A stretch of DNA of 64,000 nt, taken from positions 45,262,001 through 45,326,000 of the forward strand of contig CM059432.1 in assembly GCA_030390025.1 (NCBI GenBank). The letters are read 5' to 3'. Every line of letters begins with the position of its first letter. Within the stretch, counting starts at the first letter, position 1. The notes under the pieces were generated by a model. That model made no database searches, was not told the origin of the DNA, and saw only the letters and a program-made list of their open reading frames with translations. Both the position numbers and the translations under genes were made by a program. Shown piece by piece: positions 12,295 to 60,937 of this stretch. The stretch is from Squalus acanthias. Its lineage: Eukaryota.

Positions 12295-14098
12295 TGAGTG
12301 TGTCGCTATTCAAGAAAGGGGAGAGAGAAAACAGGGAACTACAGGCCAGTTAGCCTGAAATCAGTCATCGGGAAAATGCTGGAATGCATTAATAAGGAAG
12401 TGGTAACAAGGAACTTAGAAAATCATAATATGATTAGGCAGAGTCAACATGGTTTTATGAAAGGGAAATTGTGCCTAACAAATTTATTCGTGTTTTTTGA
12501 TGATGTACCTAGCAGAGTAGATAAAGGGGAACCAGTGGATGTAGTATATTTGGATTTCCAAAAGGCATTCAATAAGGCATCACATAAAAGGTTGCTACAC
12601 AAGATAAGGGCTCAGGGGGTTGGGGATAATATATTAGCATGGATAGAGGATTGGTTAACGGACAGAAAACAGAGAGTAGGGATAAACGGGTCATTTTCCG
12701 GTTGACAGGCTGTAACTAGTGAAGTGCCACAAGGATCAGAGCTTGGGCCTCAGCTATTTACAATCTATATTAATGACTTCGATGAAGGGACTGAGTGTAA
12801 TGTATCAAAGTTTGCTGATGATTCAAAGCTAGATGGGAAAGTAAGCTGTGAGGAGGACACCAAGAGCCTGCAAAGGGATGTAGACAGATTAAGTGAGTGG
12901 GCAATAAGGTGGCAGATGGAGTATAATGTGGGGAAATGTGAGGAAGATGGTTGTGGTAATTGAAGGTCAATCATCACAGCCCCAGGACATCACTGCAGGA
13001 GTTCCTCAGGGCAGTGTCCTAGGCCCAACCATCTTCAGCTGCTTCATCAATGACCTTCCCTCAAATATAAGGGCAGAAATGAGGATGTTCGCTGATGACT
13101 GCACAGTGTTCAGCGCCATTCACAACTCCTCAGATAATGAAGCAGTCCATGCCCACATGCAACAAGACCTGGACGACGTTCAGGCTTGGGCTGATAAGTG
13201 GCAGGTAACATTTGCGCCACAGAAGTGCCAGGCAATGACTAACTCCAACAAGCGAGAGTTTAACCACCTCCCCTTGACATTCAATGGCATCACCATCGCC
13301 GAATCCCCCACCATCAACATCCTGGGGGTCACCATTGACCAGAAGCTTAACTGGACCAGCCATATAAATACTGTGGCAACAAGAGCAGGTCAGAGGCTAG
13401 GTATTCTGCGGCGAGTGTCTCGCCTCCTGACTCCCCAAAGTCTTTCCACCATCTACAAGGCACAAGTAAGGAGTGTGATGGAAGACTCTCCACTTGCGTG
13501 GATGAGTGCAGCTGCAACAACACTCAAGAAGCTTGACACCATCCAGGACAAAGCAGCCCATTTGATTGGCACCCCATCCACCACCTTAAACATTTACTCC
13601 CTCCACCACCAGCGTACTGTGGCTGCAGTGTGTACCATCTACAAGATGCACTGCAGCAACTCATCAAGGCTTCTTCGGCAGCATCTCCCAAACCCGTGAC
13701 CTCTTCCACCTAGAAGGACAAGGGCAGCAGACGCATGGGAACACCACCACCTCCAAGTTCCCCTCCAAGTCACACCATCCTGACTTAGAAGTATATCGCC
13801 GATCCTTCATCATCGCTGGGTCAAAATCCTGGAACTCCCTACCTGACAGCACTGTGGGAGTACCTTCACCACATGAACTGCAGCGGTTCAAGGCGGCTCA
13901 CCACCACCTTCTCAAGGGCAACTAGGGATGGGCAATAAATGCTGGCCCAGCGACGCACAGATCTCATTAGCAAATAAAAAAACCATATATTCACTTTGGT
14001 AGGAAGAGTTCGAAGATTAGCTATGATCTTATTGAATGGCGAAGCAGGCTCGAAGGGCCATATGGCCTACTCCTGCTCCTACTTCTTATGGTCTCATA
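12295..14098 (+). mobile_element. CR1 LINE RT fragment (12295-12943 and 13985-14098), interrupted by a second LINE family
   Basis: GNYRPVSL, QHGFMKGK, YLDFQKAF, KFADD; resumes with ATTCACTTTGGTAGGAAG and a CR1 3' UTR after 13984. Confidence 0.85.
12944..13983 (+). mobile_element. CR1/L2-group LINE 'family B' 3' fragment
   Basis: AGVPQGSVLGP, MFADD, KLNWTSHINTVATRAGQRLG; ends GGGCAATAAATGCTGG...AATAAAAAAA; same family as 27901-28563 and 46323-48983. Confidence 0.9.
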
Positions 14099-24706: not shown

Positions 24707-26675
24707 ATGCAGTGTCAGCACCAGAAGGCTGTGCCCAGGTTTTCTGATTCCTCCCTGGACATCCTGCTCCAGGGAGTGAGAACATGGAAGGAGGTCCTCT
24801 TCCCTGGTGACGGCAGGAAGAGGCCAGCCAGTGAAACAAAAAGGGCATGGCTGGAGATCGCCCATGAAGTGAGCAGCAGGGGTGTTGTGCGCTGCTCCTG
24901 GATGCAGTGTAGGAAGAGATTTAATTACCTCATAAGGTCAGGAAAGGTGAGTATAATGCCACATTTAACTACCTCTTGATGTGTGTATCACCCCAACCCC
25001 ATCACTCTGCCTTTCCAAGCCTACTCCTGCATGTCACTCACACCAACCTACCTTGCAGGTGCACCCATCCCTCACTGTCTATGCACCTACTCACATCCCC
25101 ATCTGACCATCCACCACTGACACTCACCCTCATCCTAATGCAATCATAGAAAGTAAAGCCACAGAAGGAGGCCATTTGGCAATGTCACGCCACTCCCTCA
25201 TAGTCACCCTCTACAGATGTAGCCCATCCATCCCCAATACTCATTCCATCACTCTCACTCAAAGGTCTCTTCTTTCCCTCCTTGCAGGAGAAGAGAGCGC
25301 GGAACAACAGGGAGAGACAGAAAACCGGAGGTGGACCTCCAATTTACAGTACATTGACACCAGCAGAGGAGGGGGAGATGGAAACAAGCGGAGTGGCAGA
25401 GCTGCTGGCGGTGGGAGAGAGGGGGAGCTCCCAGCAACCTGGTGACTGAATTAAATATCATACAGTCACATGGCATACAACAGTCACTCATGGTGACTTG
25501 ATGTCAGCAGCCAGTGAAATATGATCACGTGATTAATGGTAACTTAAAACATTCTTATCATAAGAGTTCTAATTCATGTCTTTACTCTCCCACAGGTCCA
25601 TCAAGTGCCCCCCCCCCCCACTGTTCAGCTGGAGGAGGAAGACGACTCCTCAGAGGAAGCTGCAGTCTCTGAGTGTGCACCGTCACATGACCCATGCTCA
25701 CCCAGCACCAGCGCAGATACGTACACGTCGGTGGGTCCTGCGAAACATAGAGTAGTGTTGTCATCTAGTGTCTCACACATCACAAGTGAGCAAGAGCAGA
25801 TGGTGGAGACAGGGACGGCAGTGGAGAGTCCTCGCCGGAGGGCACAGGCTGCTCCAAGCTCTGCTCAGCTGGATGCAGATGCTGAACCTCGGGAGCCGTC
25901 GACAAAGAGGTTGATCTTGGAGGAGACAATACCCCTGCTGCTCAGTTCATGGGCAATCTCCAGCCATGCCCTCTTTGTTTCACTGGCTGGCCTCTTCCTG
26001 CCGTCACCAGGGAAGAGGACCTCCTTCCATGTTCTCACTCCCAGGTGCAGGATGTCCAGGGAGGAATTAGAGGCTCTGGCAGCTTTTCCAGCTGCGATGT
26101 GCATGACCTCCAACATGAGCAGCATGAGGTCGCAGGCGATGGCGACGATGTGCTCTTCCATGGAAAGAATGGCCACCTGCATGGAGCAGCTAATGCACCA
26201 GTCAAAGGAGCTCATGCTTGCTGTGAACAACAGCTTGCAGACTCTGATTGCAGTCAACTCTAGGAAGGATACAAACATAGACTTAGGCGTTCATCACCCC
26301 ACTGATCTGCACAAGGTGCTCTCCAGCTCCTTGCTAGCAGGTAAGTGCGGGTGACCCATGAGAGGGATGATGGTGAGAGGGGACATGGAAGTGGGGGGCG
26401 CTGCTCAAAGCACTCCCACCTCTCCCCCGTTGCCTCCCGCTCAGTCAGAGCCCCACATGCTGCCTCAGCTCCCGATGGCCGAGTCTGCCCCTGTACAGTT
26501 TCAGGAGGAGCAGTCTTTGGCGGGGCCAGCACATGCTCCAAAACCCAGAGGACGTCCGCCAAAAGTGTCTAAGCAGTCAGAGCAGGGAAGTGAGCAGCCT
26601 GTCTCTACTTCTGCTGAAGCCTCAGTGGGTGCACCTTGTAGAAGCACTCGGAAAAGAAAAATAACACAATCGTAG
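24707..26675 (+). pseudogene. Harbinger Myb/SANT-like gene, 3 exons (24707-24946, 25288-25441, 25596-26675)
   Basis: PRFSDSSLDILL...AWLEIAHEVSS...SWMQCRKRFNYL; splice sites AAG|GTGAGT, CCTTGCAG|G, CTG|GTGACT, CCCACAG|G; last exon disrupted. Confidence 0.8.
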
Positions 26676-37772: not shown

Positions 37773-38066
37773 TATATGTGACACACAGCAATGTGGTTGA
37801 CTCTTAACTGCCCTCTGAAATGGACACTCAGTTGTACCAAACCACTACCAAGAAGTATACTAAGAATAAAACCGGACGGATCACCCGGCATCAACCTAGG
37901 CACCGGACATGACAAAGGCACACCCAGCCAAGTCGACCTTGCAAATTCCTCCTCACTAACATCTGGGGACTTGTGCTAAAATTGGGAGCACTGTCCCGCA
38001 GACCAGTCAAGCAACAGCCTGACAGTCATACTCACAGAAACATACCTTTCAGCCAATGTCCCAGAC

Positions 38067-39733
38067 TGTAAGGGATTCCTGACCCTGCGTGTCTCGCAGC
38101 CTGTGAGATTCACGCGGCTCTGTGCAGCCTGTATGTCAGTGCGGGTCTAGGCCTGGTTGCCTGTTCTGGTCTCCAGCCAGTCTGGGAACACTAGACACAC
38201 CTGTGAGTGGTTCGAATCACTCTCCCTTACGGTTCTAGACACTGGACTTAGATGCGAGAGCAGTAATGGAGATAAAACTCATGTAGACTCGGTTTGAATG
38301 GTACGAAATGGAAAATCTTTATTGCATGATACTTAAAATTATGAAATACATGTCATAAGCACAGATTAATGACAGTACAATCTTACAAACAGTCATATAG
38401 TCGATCTTAGGGAAACGAGGAACGAACGGCACAAAGTAAATAGGGGCACACATTACAAATATCCTTAATCCTTAAACCCTCCCCTATCAATATCTATCCT
38501 AAACTAGATTCGTAGGATCTCGAGACTCATGCTCACCACTCGTGATAACTCGGAGAAATTCCGAATAGCTGATCGGATGTTTTTCACCGCAGCACCCACG
38601 TGTCGGTCAGGAGATCTCCTGGTCCCACTTGTTTACTTGCTTCTGCTGCTTCGGCTAGTAGGCTGGACCGTCTGCTGTGATGAAGACCTCTGTTGGTGGG
38701 TTTCACAGATCAGTCAATATCTCAAAGGAGAATCTTCCGGGGTCCGTTCTTTAAAGTTCAAAGAAGTCTTCCTGGCAAGGAGAAACTTGGCTGATCGACC
38801 TACAGGCGCGGTCGGGATTTACTGACCGTGGCGATGGATATGGTCTTCTTCTCTTCTCCTCTCATCTCATCTCATCTCATCTCATCTCGGGCCTTTGGTT
38901 CCGCTGCCAGTTACCAACATAGGTCTTCGTTACGCGACACGAGGTAGATCCGAACGGATCAGAAAGTTCAACAGTCTTTTCAGAAGAGGCAACAGGCAAG
39001 CAGAAGCCCAACTACGAGTACACAGGAGCAGCCACGAGGTTACGAATCGACCGGATAAAACACAGGAGCAAGCGAGCGAACGCAGGAGCAAGAGCAAGAG
39101 AGAGAATGGACGGTTTGGAGCCTGCAATTATAATGCAAAAATCTTCCGTTTCCCGCCCAACTATAATGTCCATTCTTTTGTTTAGGGTTTGGCGCCCAAA
39201 TGTCTTGTATGGGTGATCTCCGTTCTTAATGGGTTTCGGGGCTACTCATGAATGTTTGAGTACCTGTTAATATTTCTCCCATTGTTAAATCGGTCGGTGT
39301 TCTCCCTGGAGGGGTTTGGGGCTTCCAAGTGTCCTGTATAACTACCTGCTAACGGCTCTCTCATCGTAGAGTCGTTGGGAGTTTACATATTAATGTCCTT
39401 TGGATGGGCCCTTGAGTACTCGGTACAATGGCTTTCCTTTGTACCTGGGAGACCGATTCCAGTATCTATGTTTATACTGCAAACCCATAATGTCTCGTGT
39501 ATTATCTTCACTGTGCTGAATCGTTATCGATCTTGCACAAATGTTTAATGGAACGCCATCTTGTCTGCCTGTTGAAAAGTCTAGAATGTTCTGTCACGAG
39601 GTGCGGCGGCCATTTTACAGGCTGCTTGTGTCCAATTTAAACCTGCCAGCATTCTGCTGAAATAAAAGCTGTTTGAACGAAACTTTGTGTTTTCTCCTTA
39701 TTAATCAAATCGCGATATATTGCGAATTCTACA
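38067..39733 (-). repeat. 3' LTR (1,667 bp)
   Basis: Direct repeat of 44656-46322 (constant offset 6,589); TGTA...TACA ends; (TCTCA)n inside; minus-strand AATAAA at 38318-38323. Confidence 0.97.
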
Positions 39734-39745
39734 GTCCCTCCTGTT
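39734..39745 (-). other. Polypurine tract (plus-strand primer)
   Basis: Minus strand AACAGGAGGGAC directly abutting the TGT of the 3' LTR. Confidence 0.75.
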
Positions 39746-40159
39746 GATGCGAATAACTCCGCTTATCGTATCAAAAATCACAGTGGTGAGCAATCTTATC
39801 TCGATTTCACTCCGAATCCAGTAAATTAATCCCATAATTTTTAACTTAACTAGGGTCTCTGTGTCGTCCTTATTTCCCAAGAAAATCACATTTTATATCA
39901 CCGTAGGCATCATTTGCCCTTAAACTTACACCACTTGTTTTCCTTCCCGGCGTAACCAGGCCGATACCTCACGCATCACCTGTATATTTGTCTTTTATTC
40001 AGGGAAAGGAAAAAAAACAAAACCCAAAACCAAACAATCAACACCATCACCAAAATAATCAAACCCCAACTCTTAAAACATGTCGAGTTTCCAACGTATT
40101 TACAATGAGTACAAACTTCCGCGGCGCACGCGGCGAGCGGGAGTGACGCCATTTTCCGA

Positions 40160-41416
40160 TTACACGGTGCTCTCATCGTGCACGCGCACGTAACGTTCTC
40201 GCCACTCTCCCGTGTTTTCATGCTTGGTGAGGCGCTTGTCTCTTTTACAATGTATGACCAATAGGTACACTACAATAAACACTTGACAGACGACTAAAAT
40301 GTGGGAGGCTATTCTGATCCATGAAGGCACTTCAATATTCGTGAACAGATTCCACCACGGTGGAACCACTATGTCCAGAATGTCTGTTCCTATTTCGACA
40401 GTTTTCTGCTCTAATGTATAAAAATGTTTCTGTGATACCGCGACGGCTTTCAGAAGTTTGGTTAAATGCTCAGGGAGAGGGGGAATGAGGTAAAAGCAGT
40501 GAACGCATCGTTCACCAAACCCCTTCTTTGCCTCCCTACTTGATCCAAAACTTCCTGCGGTGCGGTGTACAAACTTGTAACATCTTGGTCAACAGGACCT
40601 GATACAACTGTTCCGTCTTTTTGGGGCACCACTCTGGTAACCGCACCTCAGTGAGATTTAAAATCACCGAGGCCACCGCGTAATGTACCCCCTGAAATAG
40701 TATCTGGTCTGTGGGGACCAGTACCAAACCGTTCCCGGGTCCCTTACTAGTTTTAGGGCACCCTTCTTCCTCAGCTAGAACCACCGGAATCGTGGGCGGG
40801 GCTTTGCGTGGGCGCGTAATGAGCTCAGTGGCATTTACTGGGATCGGGGAGAATGGGGCTCCGCACCCCCTGGTGCTCGCATCCCACCTCATCCCCTGTC
40901 CGTTATCCTGCCATTGATTACATAAATCCCCTCATCCGGTTCCCACCATTTGTCCCAACAGACTTTCACTTGTCCGTCTGTCCCCGTAATTGTCCGATGG
41001 GTATTATTACCCAGTCGTTCCCACTCGACCGAAGAGTTTCTCATAGTTTTGCTCAGCTTTCGCAGCCACCACCATCGGCTCAATGGGACATTCCCACTAC
41101 AGGTCAAACAAATCCGTTTGCCGACGGTGACGCTGATCCTGGGTGCGATGATCCTTACTTTGGGGCACATTAAAGAAGTCTCTTTGTAGGCAAACCCCGA
41201 TGTGCTGGAATACTCCGTTGAGTTCGTTCCCAGCCATCCTGGCCACCTTCCCTTGTGGAAATAGGTGCTGGTCCCCTCTGCCTTCCGTCTTCCGGTCCCA
41301 TCCACCGCGATGGGGGCCGTGTCCCCGGAACATCCAAACACCACGACATCCTTGGTGTGGCCTCGATAGGCCAATCCACATCCGATTGCCACGAGCAATA
41401 CTAGAATTCGTTCCAT
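40160..41416 (-). pseudogene. env: Envelope glycoprotein remnant (signal peptide, Ig-like domain, furin site, fusion peptide, TM); two frameshifts and an internal deletion
   Basis: MERILVLLVAIGCGLAY signal; N-glycosylation sequons NST, NSS, NNT, NAT, NLT; RQRR|GLVNDAFTAF at 40533-40492; PPWWNLF followed by ILVVCQVFIVVYLLVIHC and a basic tail; located just before the PPT. Confidence 0.8.
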
Positions 41417-41589
41417 CCTTCCTTGGTTCCTGTGATCAGATAGAATGAGGTAGCCAGCCTCGCAAAAGTCTCTGGCTTTTGTGAAGGGTGAGCGGGTCCC
41501 CTGACCTCGCCTCACGTAAACTTCAACGTTTGCTGCATAGACTTCCTCTAAACCTAGCCTTAAAACTCCCATCATTTTATCGTTTTCTG

Positions 41590-41700
41590 TTAAAAAACAC
41601 TACAAACTTAGCCTTATTAAAACTTAAAACTTAACCTTGACACTACAAACTTAAACTTAACCTTGAACTATAAACTTAAAACTTAAAACTAATAACTTTA
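41590..41700. repeat. Imperfect AAACTT(A)-based tandem repeat between ORF-X and env
   Basis: Repeated AAACTTA / AACCTTGA units. Confidence 0.8.
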
Positions 41701-41729
41701 CAGTGCCGCCCGTTCTCAGGGCGGCCCCT

Positions 41730-42839
41730 TTAAACTCTGAGAAGGCTGCTGCGAGCTCTTCCCGACGGTGGGAGGGCACTGACCCTTCCCTCTGATCTGC
41801 CGCAGCCTGTTACTGCTGCGATGTGGCCTGTCTGTACCCGGGTTATCTTAACCTGAAGTCTACGCCTTGGGGCAGTCTGGGGACATGACCACATCCTCCT
41901 GGGCTGGGGTTCTCTACTTGACCTACGGGGAGTTGCTATGGGCGGGGGTTCCGTGACGGACGGACCGGGTTCCGAGACCTCCAACGGGATGACCTGGGGT
42001 TCCATCACAGTCGCCGGCTCCGCCTCCGCTGACTCCGCCTCCCTAACCTCGGGGCTGGCAGTTCGTGGCTCCGCCCTGCTCGGCCCAGCAGGCGGCCCTT
42101 CACTCGTGATCTCTGCCTCCCCTGAGGACTGGACGTTCAAAGCGGGCGGCCACATCTCTGGGAGCCACATTGGTACTCTCTGTGCTCCTATAGCGGCTGG
42201 CCCTGCCTCCTCTAGCTCCTCCCTCCTGTCCTCGGGACCTGCAGCTTGTGTGTCCACCCTGTGTGGATCTCTACCTATAGGCCCCATTCCCCCCAGACCG
42301 TTCCTCAGGAACCACCCGTCATCATCACTATGCTCATCTGCACTATCCTCATCTGACCAGGGTACCCTGGGTTCTTCCTCATCTAACCCCCAACTCCAGA
42401 AAAACGCTGCATGATCGTCCGGGATGTCCCTTCCCCTGATGCAAGCTGCTATGCCTGCCTGTGTGCCTTGTGGTCCTACCTGGGGCTGTGCTTTCCCACT
42501 GGCGGGGTTTACCCCTGTAGTTTTCCCTTGCGCACCTGGCTGGTACAGTTTGCATTGGTTTACATCCTCATACTCCCGGCTTTTGGCTACCCTGTAGGCT
42601 GCTTTTATCTCACTAAGCTGCGCTTCTAGCCTGAGCACGTCTAACTTTCCCATTGATCGGGCGTTCTCCTCCCGCAGGGTCTGCTCTCTAAGCTGCCCTT
42701 CCAGCCCATCTATTTTCCCTATTAAGCGGGCGTTCTCCTCCCGCAGGGCCTGCTCTTTTAACCTGGCCTCCTCACCGCAGACCCCCTCCTGTGCGTGTCT
42801 TTTAAAAGGACACAGGTAGGCAGGCTGCGTGGGCTCTAG
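41730..42839 (-). CDS. ORF-X: 369-codon frame continuous with gag after its stop; coiled-coil repeat, acidic patch, Pro/Glu-rich region; function unknown
   Basis: Manual translation shows no stop from 42839 (LEPTQPAYLCPFKR...) into track ORF 41730-42653; no protease, RT, RNase H or integrase motifs. Confidence 0.65.
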   Translation of the reverse strand, partial: LEPTQPAYLCPFKRHAQEGVCGEEARLKEQALREENARLIGKIDGLEGQLREQTLREENARSMGKLDVLRLEAQLSEIKAAYRVAKSREYEDVNQCKLYQPGAQGKTTGVNPASGKAQPQVGPQGTQAGIAACIRGRDIPDDHAAFFWSWGLDEEEPRVPWSDEDSADEHSDDDGWFLRNGLGGMGPIGRDPHRVDTQAAGPEDRREELEEAGPAAIGAQRVPMWLPEMWPPALNVQSSGEAEITSEGPPAGPSRAEPRTASPEVREAESAEAEPATVMEPQVIPLEVSEPGPSVTEPPPIATPRRSSREPQPRRMWSCPQTAPRRRLQVKITRVQTGHIAAVTGCGRSEGRVSALPPSGRARSSLLRV

Positions 42840-44651
42840 TCATTGGGTACTATTAGACGGTCCTGCGGCACCTACGGGGCCGGTTGCGACCGCCACCTGT
42901 CCACGCGCATTCAAAACCAGCTTGCGCATGGCTCCTAACACTGCTTCGAGGTCGTCGGGAGGGGTGGGTGCCTTGGCTTCCTTAGCCGGGACAGGCGCCT
43001 GGGCTCGGACCGCGGGATTTTTATCCTTGGAATCCTTCCAAGGGTTCCTGCAGTGCTTGCGCCAGTGCCCTGTCTTCCCACACCCGTAACAAGCATTACT
43101 GGCTTGTGGGACGCGATTTCCCTCCTGATGCCACTCCTTTTGAGCCGGGGCTGCGGGTCGTACCTCATGTACTCTTCCCTTAAAGGGACGTGTCGTCATA
43201 CCCCTTATATTACGATAACCTAACGTGAGTCGATTCAAGACCGACTCTTCCGTAAGGTTGAGGTCATTGGGATCGAACCAGGCTTTTGCCTGCTCTCTAA
43301 CGGCTGGTAAACTGTTGGCTATTATGCACCTAAGCCAATGAGTTAGAGCGGCGCCTTCCACATCTTCGCGCTCGGGCGCACCTAGACAGCTGCGCTCATA
43401 TACTGGCCACAGCCTGTCGGCAAAAACCTTCGGGGGTTCTCCCTCCATCTGCACTGTCTGTCCCACTCTAGCAAACGGACCTCCGTCGTTCGCCCCCAAC
43501 ACTTCTAGGACCTCATTTTTTAATTCCTCATAACTTTTGTTTCCCCTCTTGCTCTCGCCTGAGAGACACTGAAGGACCGAGCTGTCTAATGAGAACAGCA
43601 GCATTTTTGCTGTCTCCCCATCATCGCAGCCGTTAATGGCTGCGGCTTGCTCAACTTCCCTGAAATGTACGGAAGGGTCGTCTATCTCGGTCAGCTTCCG
43701 TACGTGATTTATCATAGCTCTCAGCTGATGTGAACTGTGAGGCAACACCAGCTGTCCGAGGAGATCCCCCGGTTCTTCCCCACCGTTTCTGCTTGGGCCC
43801 CTTTTAATACCCGTTACTGGATACAACGATCCCTTTTCTGCTTCCTTTTCAATGGGCTTTTTCGTTTCTTCCATTGCTTCCTCCCTAACCCAGGTTTCTG
43901 AATAGCTGGGTGGCGCGGAGGGCGCAGTGGCTACTACTTCTTCTGCTTTACTTGGTGGGGATTTTCTAAATCTCTCATTTACTAGCGGCTGGTGCGCCGA
44001 CGGATTGATAAGGCACACCATGCCGTTCGCATTGTTCACGGCCTTTTTGAGGCTCTCTATCTCCCTTTGGCAGGCGCTATGGTCGGCTCCCTGAAACTTA
44101 TCCTCAAGGGCCAACTTATACGCCGACCTAACCCCCATTAAGCTCTCTTCTTGAGTTCTTATCTGGGCAGCTTGGCGGTTACATCTTTCCTTTAACCTGC
44201 TCTCATTCAATTTTGCCTCAGTGACCTGGCACTTGAGATAATCTATCCTTGTCTTAAGGTGACTGGAGACTTCCTGGCTTTCCTGGTGTAACTCATTTAA
44301 ATTCTTAATGAGCACCTCCCCTCCAGAAACCTTCTCCTCCATTTCTCCCTCTAAATGACTGATTCGAGCTGTTAGCGCTGTAATGGTCTGGTTTGAAATC
44401 TGAACCTGCCTTTTGTAGCACATAAGCCAGACTGCTTTCTCAACTGTCTTTTTATGTTCCTTACTATCTGTCCACCTTTCAGCTGCCTCTAGTGGGCTCT
44501 TATCCGCTAACAATTCACTTATCCACTTCTTAGTTAGATTAACCTTTCCAAACACATAATCCGCTATCTTTTCCTGCATAACATTTCGTACAGTCATTCC
44601 AAAATCTAACACACTACCCTCTCGCTGCCAGTGTCCTGCCGCGGTCGCCAT
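42840..44651 (-). CDS. gag: Gag polyprotein (~603 aa from the ATG at 44651)
   Basis: Intact ORF directly after 5' LTR/PBS; N-terminal coiled coil; PSAPPSY; capsid-like helical region; CYGCGKTGHWRKHC CCHC knuckle at 43050-43091. Confidence 0.92.
   Translation of the reverse strand: MATAAGHWQREGSVLDFGMTVRNVMQEKIADYVFGKVNLTKKWISELLADKSPLEAAERWTDSKEHKKTVEKAVWLMCYKRQVQISNQTITALTARISHLEGEMEEKVSGGEVLIKNLNELHQESQEVSSHLKTRIDYLKCQVTEAKLNESRLKERCNRQAAQIRTQEESLMGVRSAYKLALEDKFQGADHSACQREIESLKKAVNNANGMVCLINPSAHQPLVNERFRKSPPSKAEEVVATAPSAPPSYSETWVREEAMEETKKPIEKEAEKGSLYPVTGIKRGPSRNGGEEPGDLLGQLVLPHSSHQLRAMINHVRKLTEIDDPSVHFREVEQAAAINGCDDGETAKMLLFSLDSSVLQCLSGESKRGNKSYEELKNEVLEVLGANDGGPFARVGQTVQMEGEPPKVFADRLWPVYERSCLGAPEREDVEGAALTHWLRCIIANSLPAVREQAKAWFDPNDLNLTEESVLNRLTLGYRNIRGMTTRPFKGRVHEVRPAAPAQKEWHQEGNRVPQASNACYGCGKTGHWRKHCRNPWKDSKDKNPAVRAQAPVPAKEAKAPTPPDDLEAVLGAMRKLVLNARGQVAVATGPVGAAGPSNSTQ
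44633..44650 (-). promoter_or_regulatory. Primer binding site, tRNA-Arg(TCG)-type
   Basis: Minus strand TGGCGACCGCGGCAGGAC, 5 nt after the 5' LTR; complementary to the 3' 18 nt (GTCCTGCCGCGGTCGCCA) of vertebrate tRNA-Arg(TCG), recalled from memory. Confidence 0.85.
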
Positions 44652-44655
44652 TTTC

Positions 44656-46322
44656 TGGAAGGGATTCCTGACCCTGCGTGTCTCGCAGCCTGTGAGATTC
44701 ACGCGGCTCTGTGCAGCCTGTATGTCAGTGCGGGTCTAGGCCTGGTTGCCTGTTCTGGTCTCCAGCCAGTCTGGGAACACTAGACACACCTGTGAGTGGT
44801 TCGAATCACTCTCCCTTACGGTTCTAGACACTGGACTTAGATGCGAGAGCAGTAATGGAGATAAAACTCATGTAGACTCGGTTTGAATGGTACGAAATGG
44901 AAAATCTTTATTGCATGATACTTAAAATTATGAAATACATGTCATAAGCACAGATTAATGACAGTACAATCTTACAAACAGTCATATAGTCGATCTTAGG
45001 GAAACGAGGAACGAACGGCACAAAGTAAATAGGGGCACACATTACAAATATCCTTAATCCTTAAACCCTCCCCTATCAATATCTATCCTAAACTAGATTC
45101 GTAGGATCTCGAGACTCATGCTCACCACTCGTGATAACTCGGAGAAATTCCGAATAGCTGATCGGATGTTTTTCACCGCAGCACCCACGTGTCGGTCAGG
45201 AGATCTCCTGGTCCCACTTGTTTACTTGCTTCTGCTGCTTCGGCTAGTAGGCTGGACCGTCTGCTGTGATGAAGACCTCTGTTGGTGGGTTTCACAGATC
45301 AGTCAATATCTCAAAGGAGAATCTTCCGGGGTCCGTTCTTTAAAGTTCAAAGAAGTCTTCCTGGCAAGGAGAAACTTGGCTGATCGACCTACAGGCGCGG
45401 TCGGGATTTACTGACCGTGGCGATGGATATGGTCTTCTTCTCTTCTCCTCTCATCTCATCTCATCTCATCTCATCTCGGGCCTTTGGTTCCGCTGCCAGT
45501 TACCAACATAGGTCTTCGTTACGCGACACGAGGTAGATCCGAACGGATCAGAAAGTTCAACAGTCTTTTCAGAAGAGGCAACAGGCAAGCAGAAGCCCAA
45601 CTACGAGTACACAGGAGCAGCCACGAGGTTACGAATCGACCGGATAAAACACAGGAGCAAGCGAGCGAACGCAGGAGCAAGAGCAAGAGAGAGAATGGAC
45701 GGTTTGGAGCCTGCAATTATAGTGCAAAAATCTTCCGTTTCCCACCCAACTATAATGTCCATTCTTTTGTTTAGGGTTTGGCGCCCAAATGTCTTGTATG
45801 GGTGATCTCCGTTCTTAATGGGTTTCGGGGCTACTCATGAATGTTTGAGTACCTGTTAATATTTCTCCCATTGTTAAATCGGTCGGTGTTCTCCCTGGAG
45901 GGGTTTGGGGCTTCCAAGTGTCCTGTATAACTACCTGCTAACGGCTCTCTCATCGTAGAGTCGTTGGGAGTTTACATATTAATGTCCTTTGGATGGGCCC
46001 TTGAGTACTCGGTACAATGGCTTTCCTTTGTACCTGGGAGACCGATTCCAGTATCTATGTTTATACTGCAAACCCATAATGTCTCGTGTATTATCTTCAC
46101 TGTGCTGAATCGTTATCGATCTTGCACAAATGTTTAATGGAACGCCATCTTGTCTGCCTGTTGAAAAGTCTAGAATGTTCTGTCACGAGGTGCGGCGGCC
46201 ATTTTACAGGCTGCTTGTGTCCAATTTAAACCTGCCAGCATTCTGCTGAAATAAAAGCTGTTTGAACGAAACTTTGTGTTTTCTCCTTATTAATCAAATC
46301 GCGATATATTGCGAATTCTACA
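44656..46322 (-). repeat. 5' LTR (1,667 bp)
   Basis: Near-identical to 38067-39733; putative minus-strand TATAAT at 45716-45721 with a GC/GT box ~25 nt upstream. Confidence 0.97.
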
Positions 46323-49300
46323 AGACTCCTCCATCAACATCCCTGGGTATGTCCTGTGATGACGGCACAGGGTGTGTCCCTGGAAGTCCTCAACATTGAC
46401 TCCGGACCCCATGAAGTCTCATGGCATCAGATCAAACATGGGCAGGGAAACCTCCTGCTGATTACCACCTACCACCCTCCCTCAGCTGATGAATCAGTAC
46501 TCCTCCGTGTTGAACACCACTTGGAAGAAGCACTGAGGCAAGGGCACAGAACGTACTCTGGGTGGGAGGACTTCAATGTGCATCATCAAGAGTGGCTCGC
46601 TAACACCACTACTGACCGAGCTGGCTAAGTCCTGAAGGATATAGTTGCCAGACTGGGCCTGTGGCAGGCGGTGAGAGAACCAACACAAGGGAACTAGACC
46701 TTATCCTCACCAATCTACCTGTCACAGATGCATCTGTCCATGACAATATTGGTAGGAGTGACCAACACACCGTCCTTGTGGAGTCGAAGTCCCGTCTTCA
46801 CACTGAGGACACACTCCATCGTATTGTGTGGCACTACTACTGTGCTAAATGGGATTGATTCATAATAGATCTAGCAGCTCAAAACTGGGCATCCATCAGG
46901 CACTGTGGGCCATCAGCAGCAGCAGAATTGTATTCCACCACAATCTGTAACCTCATGGCCCGGCATATCCCTCACTCTACCATTACTATCAAGCCAGGGG
47001 ACCAACTGTGGTTCAATGAAGAGTGTAGAAGAGCTTGCCAGGAGCAGCACCAGGCGTACCTAAAACTGAAGCTACAACACAGGAATACATACATGCTAAA
47101 CAGCATGCTATAGACAGAGCAAAGCGATCCCCCCACCAATAGATCAGATCAAAGCTTTGCAGTCCTGCCACATCAAATCATGAATGGTGGTGGAAAATTA
47201 AAGAACTAACGGGAGGCGGAGGCTCCATGAATATCCCCATCCTCAATGATGGGGGAGCCCAGCACGTGAATGCAAAAGACAAGGCTGAAGCATTCACAAC
47301 CATCTTCAGCCAGAAGTGCCGAATAGATAATCTATCTCAGCCTCCTCCTGAGGTCCCCACCATCACAGAAGCCAGTCTTCAGCCAATTTGATTCATTCCA
47401 TGTGCTATCAAGAAACGGCTGAGCGCACTGGATACAGCAAAGGCTATGGGCCCCAACAACATCCCGGTTGTCATGCTGAAGACTTGTGCTCCAGAACTAG
47501 CCGCACTTCTAGCCAAGTTGCTCCAGTACAGGTACAACACTGGCATCTACCCGACAATGTGGAAAATTGCCCAGGTATGTTCCGTCCACAGAAAGCAGGA
47601 CAAATCCAATCTGGCAAATTACCACCCCATCAGTCTACTCTCAATCATCAGCAAAGTGATGGAAGGTGTCGTTGACAGTGCTATCAAGCAGCACTTACTC
47701 ACCAAAGCTCACCAATGCTCAGTTTGAGTTCCGCCAAGACCACTCGGCTCCAGACCACATTACAGCCTTGGTCCAAACATGGACAATAGAGCTGAATTCC
47801 AGAGATGAGGTGAGAGTGACTGTCCTTGACATCAAGGCAGCATTTGACCGAGTGTAGCATCAAGGAGCCCTAGTAAAATTGAAGTCAATGGGAATCGGGG
47901 GAAAACTCTACACTGGCTGGAGTCATACCTAGCACAAAGGAAGATGGTTGTGGTTGTTGGAGGCCAATCATCACAGCTCCAGGACATCAGTGCAGGAGTT
48001 CCTCAGAGCAGTGTCCAGGCCCAACCATCTTCAGTTGCTTCATCAATGACCTTCCCTCCATCATAAGGTCAGAAGTGGGGATGTTCGCTGATGATTGCAC
48101 AGTGTTCAGTTGCATTTGCAACTCTCAGATAATGAAGCAGTCCGTGCCCGCATGCAGCAAGATCTGGATGACATTCAGGCTTGGGCTGATAAGTGGCAGG
48201 TAACATTCGTACCACACAAGTGCCAGGCAATGACTATCTCTAACAACAGAGAGTCTAACCACTTCCCCTTGACATTCAACGGCATTACCATCGGCGAATC
48301 CCCCACCATCAACATCCCGGGGGTCACCATTGACCAGAAACTTAACTGGACCAACCACATAAATACTGTGGCTACAAGAGCAGGTCAGAGACTGGTTATT
48401 CTGCGGCAAGTAACTCACCTCCTGACTCTCCAAAGCCTTTCCACCATCTACAAGACACAGGTCAGGAGTGTGATGGAATACTCTCCACTTGCCCGCATGA
48501 GTGCTGCTCCAACAACTCTCAAGAATCTCAACACCATCCAGGACAAAGCAGCCCACTTGAATGGCACCCCATCCACCACCCCAAACATTCATTCCCTCCA
48601 CCACTGGCACACTGTGGCTGCAGTGTGTACCATACAAGATGCACTGCAGCAACTCGCCAAGGATTCTTCAACAGCATCTCCCAAACTCGTGACCTCTACC
48701 AGCTAGAAGGACAAGGGCAGCAGGCACATGGGAACACCATCACTTCCAAGTTCGCCTCCAAGTCACACAGCATCCTGACTTGGAAATATATCGCCATTCC
48801 TTCATCGTCGCTGTGTCAAAATCCTGGAACTCCCTCCCTAACAGCACTGTGGGAGTACCTTCACCACACGGACTGCAGCGCTTCAAGAAGGTGGCTTACC
48901 AATGCCTTCTCAAAGGCAATTAGGGATGGGCAATAAATGCTGGTGGTGCCAGCGATGCCCTCATCTCATCAACGAATAAAAAAGACATAAAAGTCAATGT
49001 TGCAGCATTATTTAAAATGTTTGCTTGTGTATGCAATGTACCCCATCACTCATTTAATTACTTGTTTTAATTACAAACTCTCTTCCATATAGCATTTTTA
49101 ACAGCTGCCAATGGATAGCCGACAGCAATTCCAAGAACTTCCATTTACGATAAAGATATTGTGAAATTATTTTTATATACAAATTACCTGCACTTGTTAA
49201 TCCTGTACATGTTAATCCTTTAAATGTAAATTTGTATTTACAGGGACAGTTGCTTGGAGTGTGGCAAAGTATTCAGCATATGTACAAACAGGGAAATAAT

Positions 49301-60266: not shown

Positions 60267-60937
60267 TGCGGAGATGCCGGTGTTGGACTGGGGTGGACAA
60301 AAGTGAGAAGTCGCACAACACCAGGTTATAGTCCAACAGTTTTATTTGAAATCACAAGCTTTCGGAGCTGCTGCTCCTTCGTCAGGTGAAGTGAAGGAAT
60401 ACGAATCGGCAAAGCATATATAGACAGAGAACAATGCCTGTGCAGCGTACAATGTCAGACGACTACAGTTAATCTTTCTGACTGCCTTTTATCACACCTC
60501 GGCAGAGAGACAATCAGGTCAGTCAGGAAGGCACCACATCAAAGACATAGCAAGATACAACTAAGACAATGAGGTGGGGTCTCAGGGGGTCTAATGTGTC
60601 AAATGCTGCAGTCTGTATGGAAAACCATAAACTGTGATTTCCAGTAAAAAAAAGTAAAAAGTTTAAAGTTTAAAGACATATCTTGCTATGTCTTTGATAT
60701 AATGCCTTCCTGACTGACCTGATTGTTTCTCTGCCGAGGTGTGATAAAAGGCAGTCAGAAAGATTAACTGTAGTCGTCTGACATTGTACGCTGCACAGGC
60801 ATTGTTCTCTGTCTATATATGCTGCGCCGATTCGTATTCTTTCACTTCACCTGACGAAGGAGCAGCAGCTCCGAAAGCTTGTGATTTCAAATAAAACTGT
60901 TGGACTATAACCTGGTGTTGTGCGACTTCTCACTTTT
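60267..60937. mobile_element. Penelope-like fold-back element with 259-bp inverted arms
   Basis: Arms 60299-60557 and 60679-60937, 121-bp spacer; TSD-like TTATAAAAGA (60257-60266 / 60936-60945). Confidence 0.75.
60847..60884 (+). ncRNA. Minimal type I hammerhead ribozyme (mirror copy on - strand at ~60352-60389)
   Basis: TCAC-CTGACGA-A-GGAGC(AGCA)GCTCC-GAAAGCTT-GTGA: CUGANGA and GAAA core, stem II, stem I TCAC/GTGA, palindromic AGCT in place of stem III. Confidence 0.75.

Follow-up and report, generated by a model that had tools for sequence, protein, structure and literature searches.

The window analysed, 64,000 nucleotides of a Squalus acanthias contig (CM059432.1), contains an 8,256-bp endogenous retrovirus (ERV) on the minus strand, running from 46322 to 38067. 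Its features, in proviral order and in window coordinates, are as follows.

46323..46326, plus strand: target-site duplication AGAC, right copy, at which the host LINE frame restarts.
44656..46322, minus strand: 5' LTR, 1,667 bp, with a single AATAAA at LTR position 1411 (44912) and a third-last base unlike that of the 3' LTR.
44633..44650, minus strand: primer-binding site, overlapping the gag start codon.
42840..44651, minus strand: gag, 603 aa, open, with a helical N-terminal region, a capsid-like middle and one CCHC knuckle.
41730..42839, minus strand: ORF-X, 369 codons, in frame right behind the gag TGA, with its first Met at residue 63.
42609..42769, minus strand: in-frame tandem repeat, period 75 nt, 77% identity, within the Gag-helix-like part of ORF-X.
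41417..41729, minus strand: T-rich spacer with short repeats and no pol, between ORF-X and env.
40919..41416, minus strand: env piece 1, signal peptide and Ig-like region (Ig_3 at only E 0.12), ending at deletion 1.
40575..40916, minus strand: env piece 2, 75% identical to residues 178-291 of skate protein P0035, ending at deletion 2.
40486..40584, minus strand: env piece 3, basic cleavage motif RQRR and the start of a fusion-peptide-like stretch, ending at deletion 3.
40160..40489, minus strand: env piece 4, which covers the membrane-proximal region, the transmembrane segment and the tail (73% identity to P0035 residues 406-511).
39734..39745, minus strand: polypurine tract, abutting the 3' LTR.
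38067..39733, minus strand: 3' LTR, 1,667 bp.
38063..38066, plus strand: target-site duplication AGAC, left copy, within the host LINE reading frame.

The provirus has TG...CA ends, is flanked on both sides by the 4-bp target duplication AGAC, and carries a primer-binding-like site 5 nt downstream of the 5' LTR and a purine tract upstream of the 3' LTR. The cis signals of a non-autonomous LTR element (both LTRs, primer site, purine tract and target duplication) are intact. A plus-strand orientation was rejected since the primer site and purine tract fit the minus strand only. Beyond the AGAC duplication the reading frame of the interrupted host LINE resumes; together with the TG...CA ends and the 4-bp duplication, this continuous frame gives the insertion marks of the integrase type. 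The LTR pair (38067-39733 and 44656-46322) was aligned ungapped at an offset of 6,589, giving 3 mismatches and 0 gaps over 1,667 bp, at 38069/44658, 39133/45722 and 39155/45744, the same three sites that had been counted by eye in the initial annotation. A repeat search returned an LTR match of 1,668 bp at 99.82%, including 1 flanking base alike by chance.

Because the family is of high copy number with many near-identical LTRs, the LTR identity might be an artefact of assembly, or the element a chimera of two proviruses. Both are disfavoured because the AGAC duplication matches and the host LINE frame is continuous; the LTRs are, moreover, not identical, and we consider this explanation extremely improbable. 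LINE contigs of one public run, X13, depart at 38067 with letters resembling the right flank.

Some further observations concern the LTR ends and the surroundings. The mismatch at 44658 versus 38069 is the third-last base of U5, the 5' LTR ending in TTCCA and the 3' LTR in TTACA; it breaks the terminal inverted repeat that would pass to progeny of the present copy. Host LINE copies lie at 12941-13987 and 47938-48989 with 88% identity, the right one continuing the LINE interrupted by the provirus. Two inverted repeat pairs, 60299-60557 / 60679-60937 (259 bp, 97%) and 24743-24888 / 25926-26071 (146 bp, 95%), are possibly small DNA transposons.

The primer-binding site is one that we take to be of the tRNA-Arg(UCG) type. 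A search for a matching tRNA gene found the 15-mer in 34 viral loci, of which 1/34 held a tRNA, with no type assigned, and a literature search returned no match for the primer tRNA. The gag start codon lies inside the primer site (44633-44651), and the first Gag residues consequently track the primer tRNA. The Gag N-terminus reads MATAAG in the present element and in proteins P0006 and P0019, and MATTKG in skate P0001; the two forms presumably match two tRNA-Arg(UCG) isodecoders.

The gag product was 51% identical (E 4e-183) to skate P0001, whose cluster has 4 members at 4 gene loci, and Gag proteins of the present family, 564-588 aa long, are encoded at three skate loci. A library-wide Gag search gave 29 hits, 20 of which were looked up (including 2 env hits); these 20 comprised 10 from catshark, whale shark and horn shark, 1 from Xenopus and 1 plant zinc-knuckle chance match among others, which points to a cartilaginous fish as the probable host. 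The Gag profile matched retroviral nucleocapsids strongly and MLV capsid weakly (E 0.12-0.22). The frames of gag (603 aa) and ORF-X (369 codons) run uninterrupted, as had been claimed, there being no stop in their 972 codons except the gag TGA. A codon-position test for selection gave no signal: among the variant sites listed (40 of 360), third positions accounted for 4/10 in gag and 2/7 in ORF-X, and neither frame showed a sign of purifying selection. Among the shark relatives, parts of gag and env are fused in whale shark gene models, and env sequence forms the end of a sawshark zinc-finger model (P0016, P0017, P0031, P0036); these fusions may be prediction artefacts over decayed copies.

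The statement that pol is gone was borne out. No Pfam pol domain was found in the 7/7 ORFs scanned, and protease, RT-catalytic and integrase zinc-finger motifs were absent from the three sense frames, where matches of 3-4 letters occurred at chance level only. ORF-X occupies the place behind gag, and a 369-codon frame is expected there by chance, at local composition, with P ~1e-6. The gag stop stands in the sequence CAA TGA CTA G, a read-through context. ORF-X would be best reached by read-through of this stop, because its first Met comes only at residue 63. An in-frame gag-TGA-pol arrangement is described for XtERV-S (PMC8278194).

Residues ~41-100 of ORF-X resemble the Gag helix of relatives, and the remainder is rich in Pro, Glu, Ser and Gly and of low complexity. 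Residues 47-100 matched a profile of 18 related Gag proteins with E 2.4e-7 (16.2 bits, against 3.2 bits for the reversed sequence, and 0 of 500 shuffles as high); hhalign gave the Gag-helix match a probability of 22%, and the match is partly one of coiled-coil composition. Protein searches returned no ORF-X homologue. A copy of the element's own gag was rejected as its source (best DNA match 25 nt, BLASTP E 2.2), as was the loki 'smc' gene, which sits N-terminal to Gag. An RRSSR motif occurs at 41927 and is, we assume, of the kind found in integrase tails. We read ORF-X as the likely remnant of a read-through pol frame that has been patched and includes a stretch of gag-like helix; a second gene retained for its own sake is less likely. 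The proposal of a lineage that keeps ORF-X open stands as to the open frame and is overstated if it implies a separately retained gene. Towards its end, at 41779-41816, ORF-X lacks a 39-nt in-frame repeat that was present in 4/4 runs examined, with contig depths of 700, 1,425, 24 and 17, the first two far exceeding the 15-35 common among contigs.

Other copies of the family were sought in public sequencing runs, of which 24 were listed; contigs of four (X1, X2, X8 and X13, the last with organism label D, a second organism label) were aligned to 37900-44700. The provirus interior was present in 20 runs from 8 studies under five organism labels, not necessarily of as many species, and 19 of these 20 runs contained half or more of the interior words. 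No RNA run was found among the listed runs bearing the interior, X8 being RNA by guess only. Contigs covered 30/30 bins in all four aligned runs. Record 27 of X8 (42623-42874) bridges the gag/ORF-X join, the env start and the spacer are tiled by records 2-5 of X1 (41319-41610), and the ORF-X stop is spanned by an X13 contig with at least 82 letters on each side of 41735. Depths of 457-1,425 were reached by individual contigs lying in ORF-X or the spacer, and of 15-35 by many others, depth not being copy number. On these contigs the loss of pol is evidently a family trait, the pol-less layout being common to other copies. The alignment of X2 record 21 breaks off at 41437, a short way upstream of env; some copy apparently has a different sequence there, and the layout is not universal. 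No record among those listed bridged flank and LTR as a sign of insertion polymorphism, the flank being itself a repeat.

The shared layout bears on the possibility that an intact autonomous virus was inserted long ago and decayed in place, its LTRs being made alike later by gene conversion. One locus cannot tell conversion from youth, and divergence of the interior from the family seems to exceed that between the two LTRs. The pol-less layout is nonetheless common to other copies and to a second organism label, and decay in place is largely refuted by the shared gag/ORF-X join. It is also opposed by the absence of stops throughout gag and ORF-X apart from the gag TGA, and by a CpG observed/expected ratio of 0.75-0.81 in LTR, gag and env versus 0.26-0.52 in the flanks. 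We regard this history as very improbable.

Identity of the env remnant was 71-73% with two proteins of skate and 54% with one of sawshark. The remnant was measured against skate P0035, a gene model that may itself be shortened. Three deletions were found. The first, at ~40918, removed P0035 residues 159-177 (~19 codons); the second, at ~40580, removed residues 292-301 (~10 codons); and the third, a large one at ~40488, joined the fusion-peptide region to the membrane-proximal part. The large deletion had been noted in the initial annotation together with two frameshifts, which proved to be the ~19- and 10-codon deletions. The env layout comprises a signal peptide, RQRR, a hydrophobic stretch and a transmembrane segment. 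Atlas leads were haemagglutinin and F0 at 0.87, below 0.9; a Pfam search including Mononegavirales F (PF00523) gave no hit, nor did a comparison with PDB sequences. Visual comparison with the Loki Env sequences printed in the supplement of PMC7947760 showed a resemblance in the region preceding the cleavage site. The motif layout, with the Atlas leads and this resemblance, suggests that env may be an F-type fusogen. An Ig-like region (40919-41416) stands ahead of the fusogen-like part and is conserved in the skate and sawshark proteins. A small minus-strand frame after env (39976-40269), Cys-rich and then hydrophobic, could have arisen by chance in a T-rich sequence.

None of the records listed (32 of 32,900 pieces, 24 of 1,056 loose ends and 15 of 48 joints) bridged the env junctions. 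At 40920 three X1 contigs and two X2 contigs read differently, and the alignments of X13 contigs end at 40492, 40579 and 40929. The search for copies with identical deletion junctions, proposed earlier, thus succeeded at the gag/ORF-X join and returned nothing at the env junctions among the records listed. A lineage sharing the env deletions is unproven, because the deletions are missing from other copies among those listed; contigs drop rare variants, and a small env-deleted sub-lineage could stay invisible.

The 3 substitutions and 0 indels of the LTRs in 3,334 bp predict ~4 substitutions in the interior. Large deletions expected after insertion number 0.05-0.3 versus 3 seen (P 2e-5 to 0.004), if 1-2 large deletions arise per 100 substitutions; a rate of 10 per 100, combined with the LTR clock at its upper bound, raises P to 0.2. 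All three large deletions fall in env (P ~0.05 if uniform), and the sole other length difference seen, the 39-nt ORF-X repeat, keeps frame. On this statistic the three env deletions, each of ~30 nt or more, probably arose before insertion. The proposal that the damage predates integration is therefore supported for pol, whose loss is common to other copies, and probable for env, where it depends on the LTR clock with an assumed deletion rate. At the epaulette shark rate of 7e-10 per generation (PMC10587355), a rate taken from another species, the three LTR differences put the insertion ~1.3 million generations back (0.27-3.8), which is 6-26 My with generations of 5-20 years; an assumed rate of 1e-9 per year gives 0.9 My. 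The helper's description as 'recently active' was overstated, for at shark rates the LTR clock could stand for millions of years, and in sharks a pair of near-identical LTRs is no sure sign of recent activity.

The pol loss may alternatively have been inherited and the env deletions be private to the present copy, dating from its one round of reverse transcription or from later time in the chromosome. In keeping with this, the other copies listed lack the deletion at 40920, each of the three junctions is a stopping point of X13 contigs, none is bridged among the records listed, and the LTR clock may exceed a million generations. Such private damage would, against this, require three separate deletions of ~30 nt or more, all in env, versus 0 indels in the 3,334 bp of LTR, and the loss of rare variants from contigs would hide any small sub-lineage. 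The best run also lacks 24% of the present copy's words, or ~40 differing sites versus ~4 expected since insertion, a weak comparison as runs may derive from other individuals. Damage private to this copy is unlikely in our judgement, while retaining some weight.

The open gag could also reflect use of the protein by the host, as with zebrafish Bhikhari Gag (10.1101/2024.03.25.586437), and not a cis need of the element; the 564-588 aa Gag proteins of this family at three skate loci would fit. Young age, with only ~4 interior substitutions expected, accounts by itself for the open frame, and host use seems to us distinctly improbable.

The element is best explained as one insertion of a multi-copy, pol-less ERV family, likely copied and integrated by the enzymes of a pol-bearing relative (probability about 0.78). 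Mobilisation in trans is likely because the loss of pol is a family trait, and that reading of the initial annotation is likely right as to pol: the shared pol-less layout and the integrase-type insertion agree with it, and the helper itself was not found in viral contigs or metagenomes, four scans of which gave no locus related to gag or env. The element retains all its cis signals (LTRs, primer site and purine tract) together with gag; its transcript would be co-packaged in particles that also hold helper Gag-Pol, and the gag stop would be read through into ORF-X. The env deletions would form a second, later layer, after the loss of pol. With good probability they accumulated before insertion, in a small env-less sub-lineage copying within germ cells, where env may be dispensable.

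A bolder version, which we find rather doubtful, makes the parent family a true satellite retrovirus that kept gag and an Ig-headed F-type env, borrowed only Pol, favoured its own RNA by means of read-through Gag-X and moved between cartilaginous-fish species in this way; the present copy would then be a second-tier derivative that dropped env for intracellular copying. Trans-mobilised defective ERVs are a well-known kind, and for that reason the present copy alone is ordinary. Its value lies in a snapshot of stepwise loss, pol first and env later, in a cartilaginous-fish family. Literature searches found no earlier description of such a family with a fusion-protein-like env.

Comparison was made with known systems. 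SnRV, with an Arg primer site, a coiled-coil Gag and an in-frame gag-pol, may be alike in these traits. The SnRV clade consists of ERVs with members in fish, amphibians, reptiles and birds (PMC12193657). No description of such a shark family was found in the portions available of PMC9040795, PMC12440569, PMC10435555 and 10.1101/2023.10.26.564294, nor in literature searches covering sources other than subscription papers and repeat databases.

Lokiretroviruses are alike in the Env signal peptide, basic cleavage site, fusion-peptide-like stretch, transmembrane segment and helical Gag N-terminus; the present env differs in an extra N-terminal ~230 aa with an Ig-like part, and the element is without RT (PMC7947760). 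Six chondrichthyan genomes were found in the lokiretrovirus screen table, in the part available, and none was marked positive (PMC7947760). Plain membership was rejected; a place in the clade would show in pol (RT grouping, a tether plus RNase H and a CGIN1-like integrase), which the present copy lacks.

Zebrafish Bhikhari (Bik-1, Bik-2), non-autonomous relatives of lokiretroviruses, share a ~600-aa open Gag with a helical N-terminus, the lack of pol and near-identical copies, and their partner was likewise inferred and not found (10.1101/2024.03.25.586437). Bhikhari has gag only, with a glycine-rich Gag end, whereas a CCHC knuckle, ORF-X in frame behind gag and the remains of env are present here; on the env remnant and the knuckle, membership was rejected. 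Closer Gag relatives may be contained in the supplements of the Bhikhari paper (10.1101/2024.03.25.586437).

Bovine ERVK[2-1-LTR] D-type elements, ETn/MusD and recKoRV are alike in a replaced central segment, kept flanking cis parts and mobilisation by competent relatives (PMC10924933), and ETn/MusD is described as working alike (PMC6466679). The bovine D-type has no intact ORF, and its helper and new insertions were observed (PMC10924933), unlike those of the present element. Mouse IAP 1Δ1 is alike in an internal deletion that leaves an open gag-pol-derived fusion frame, with proteins needed in trans, and its fusion is reported to help in cis (PMC6466679). It is betaretrovirus-like, without env and with a direct gag-pol join, whereas ORF-X of the present element sits behind an intact gag stop (PMC6466679).
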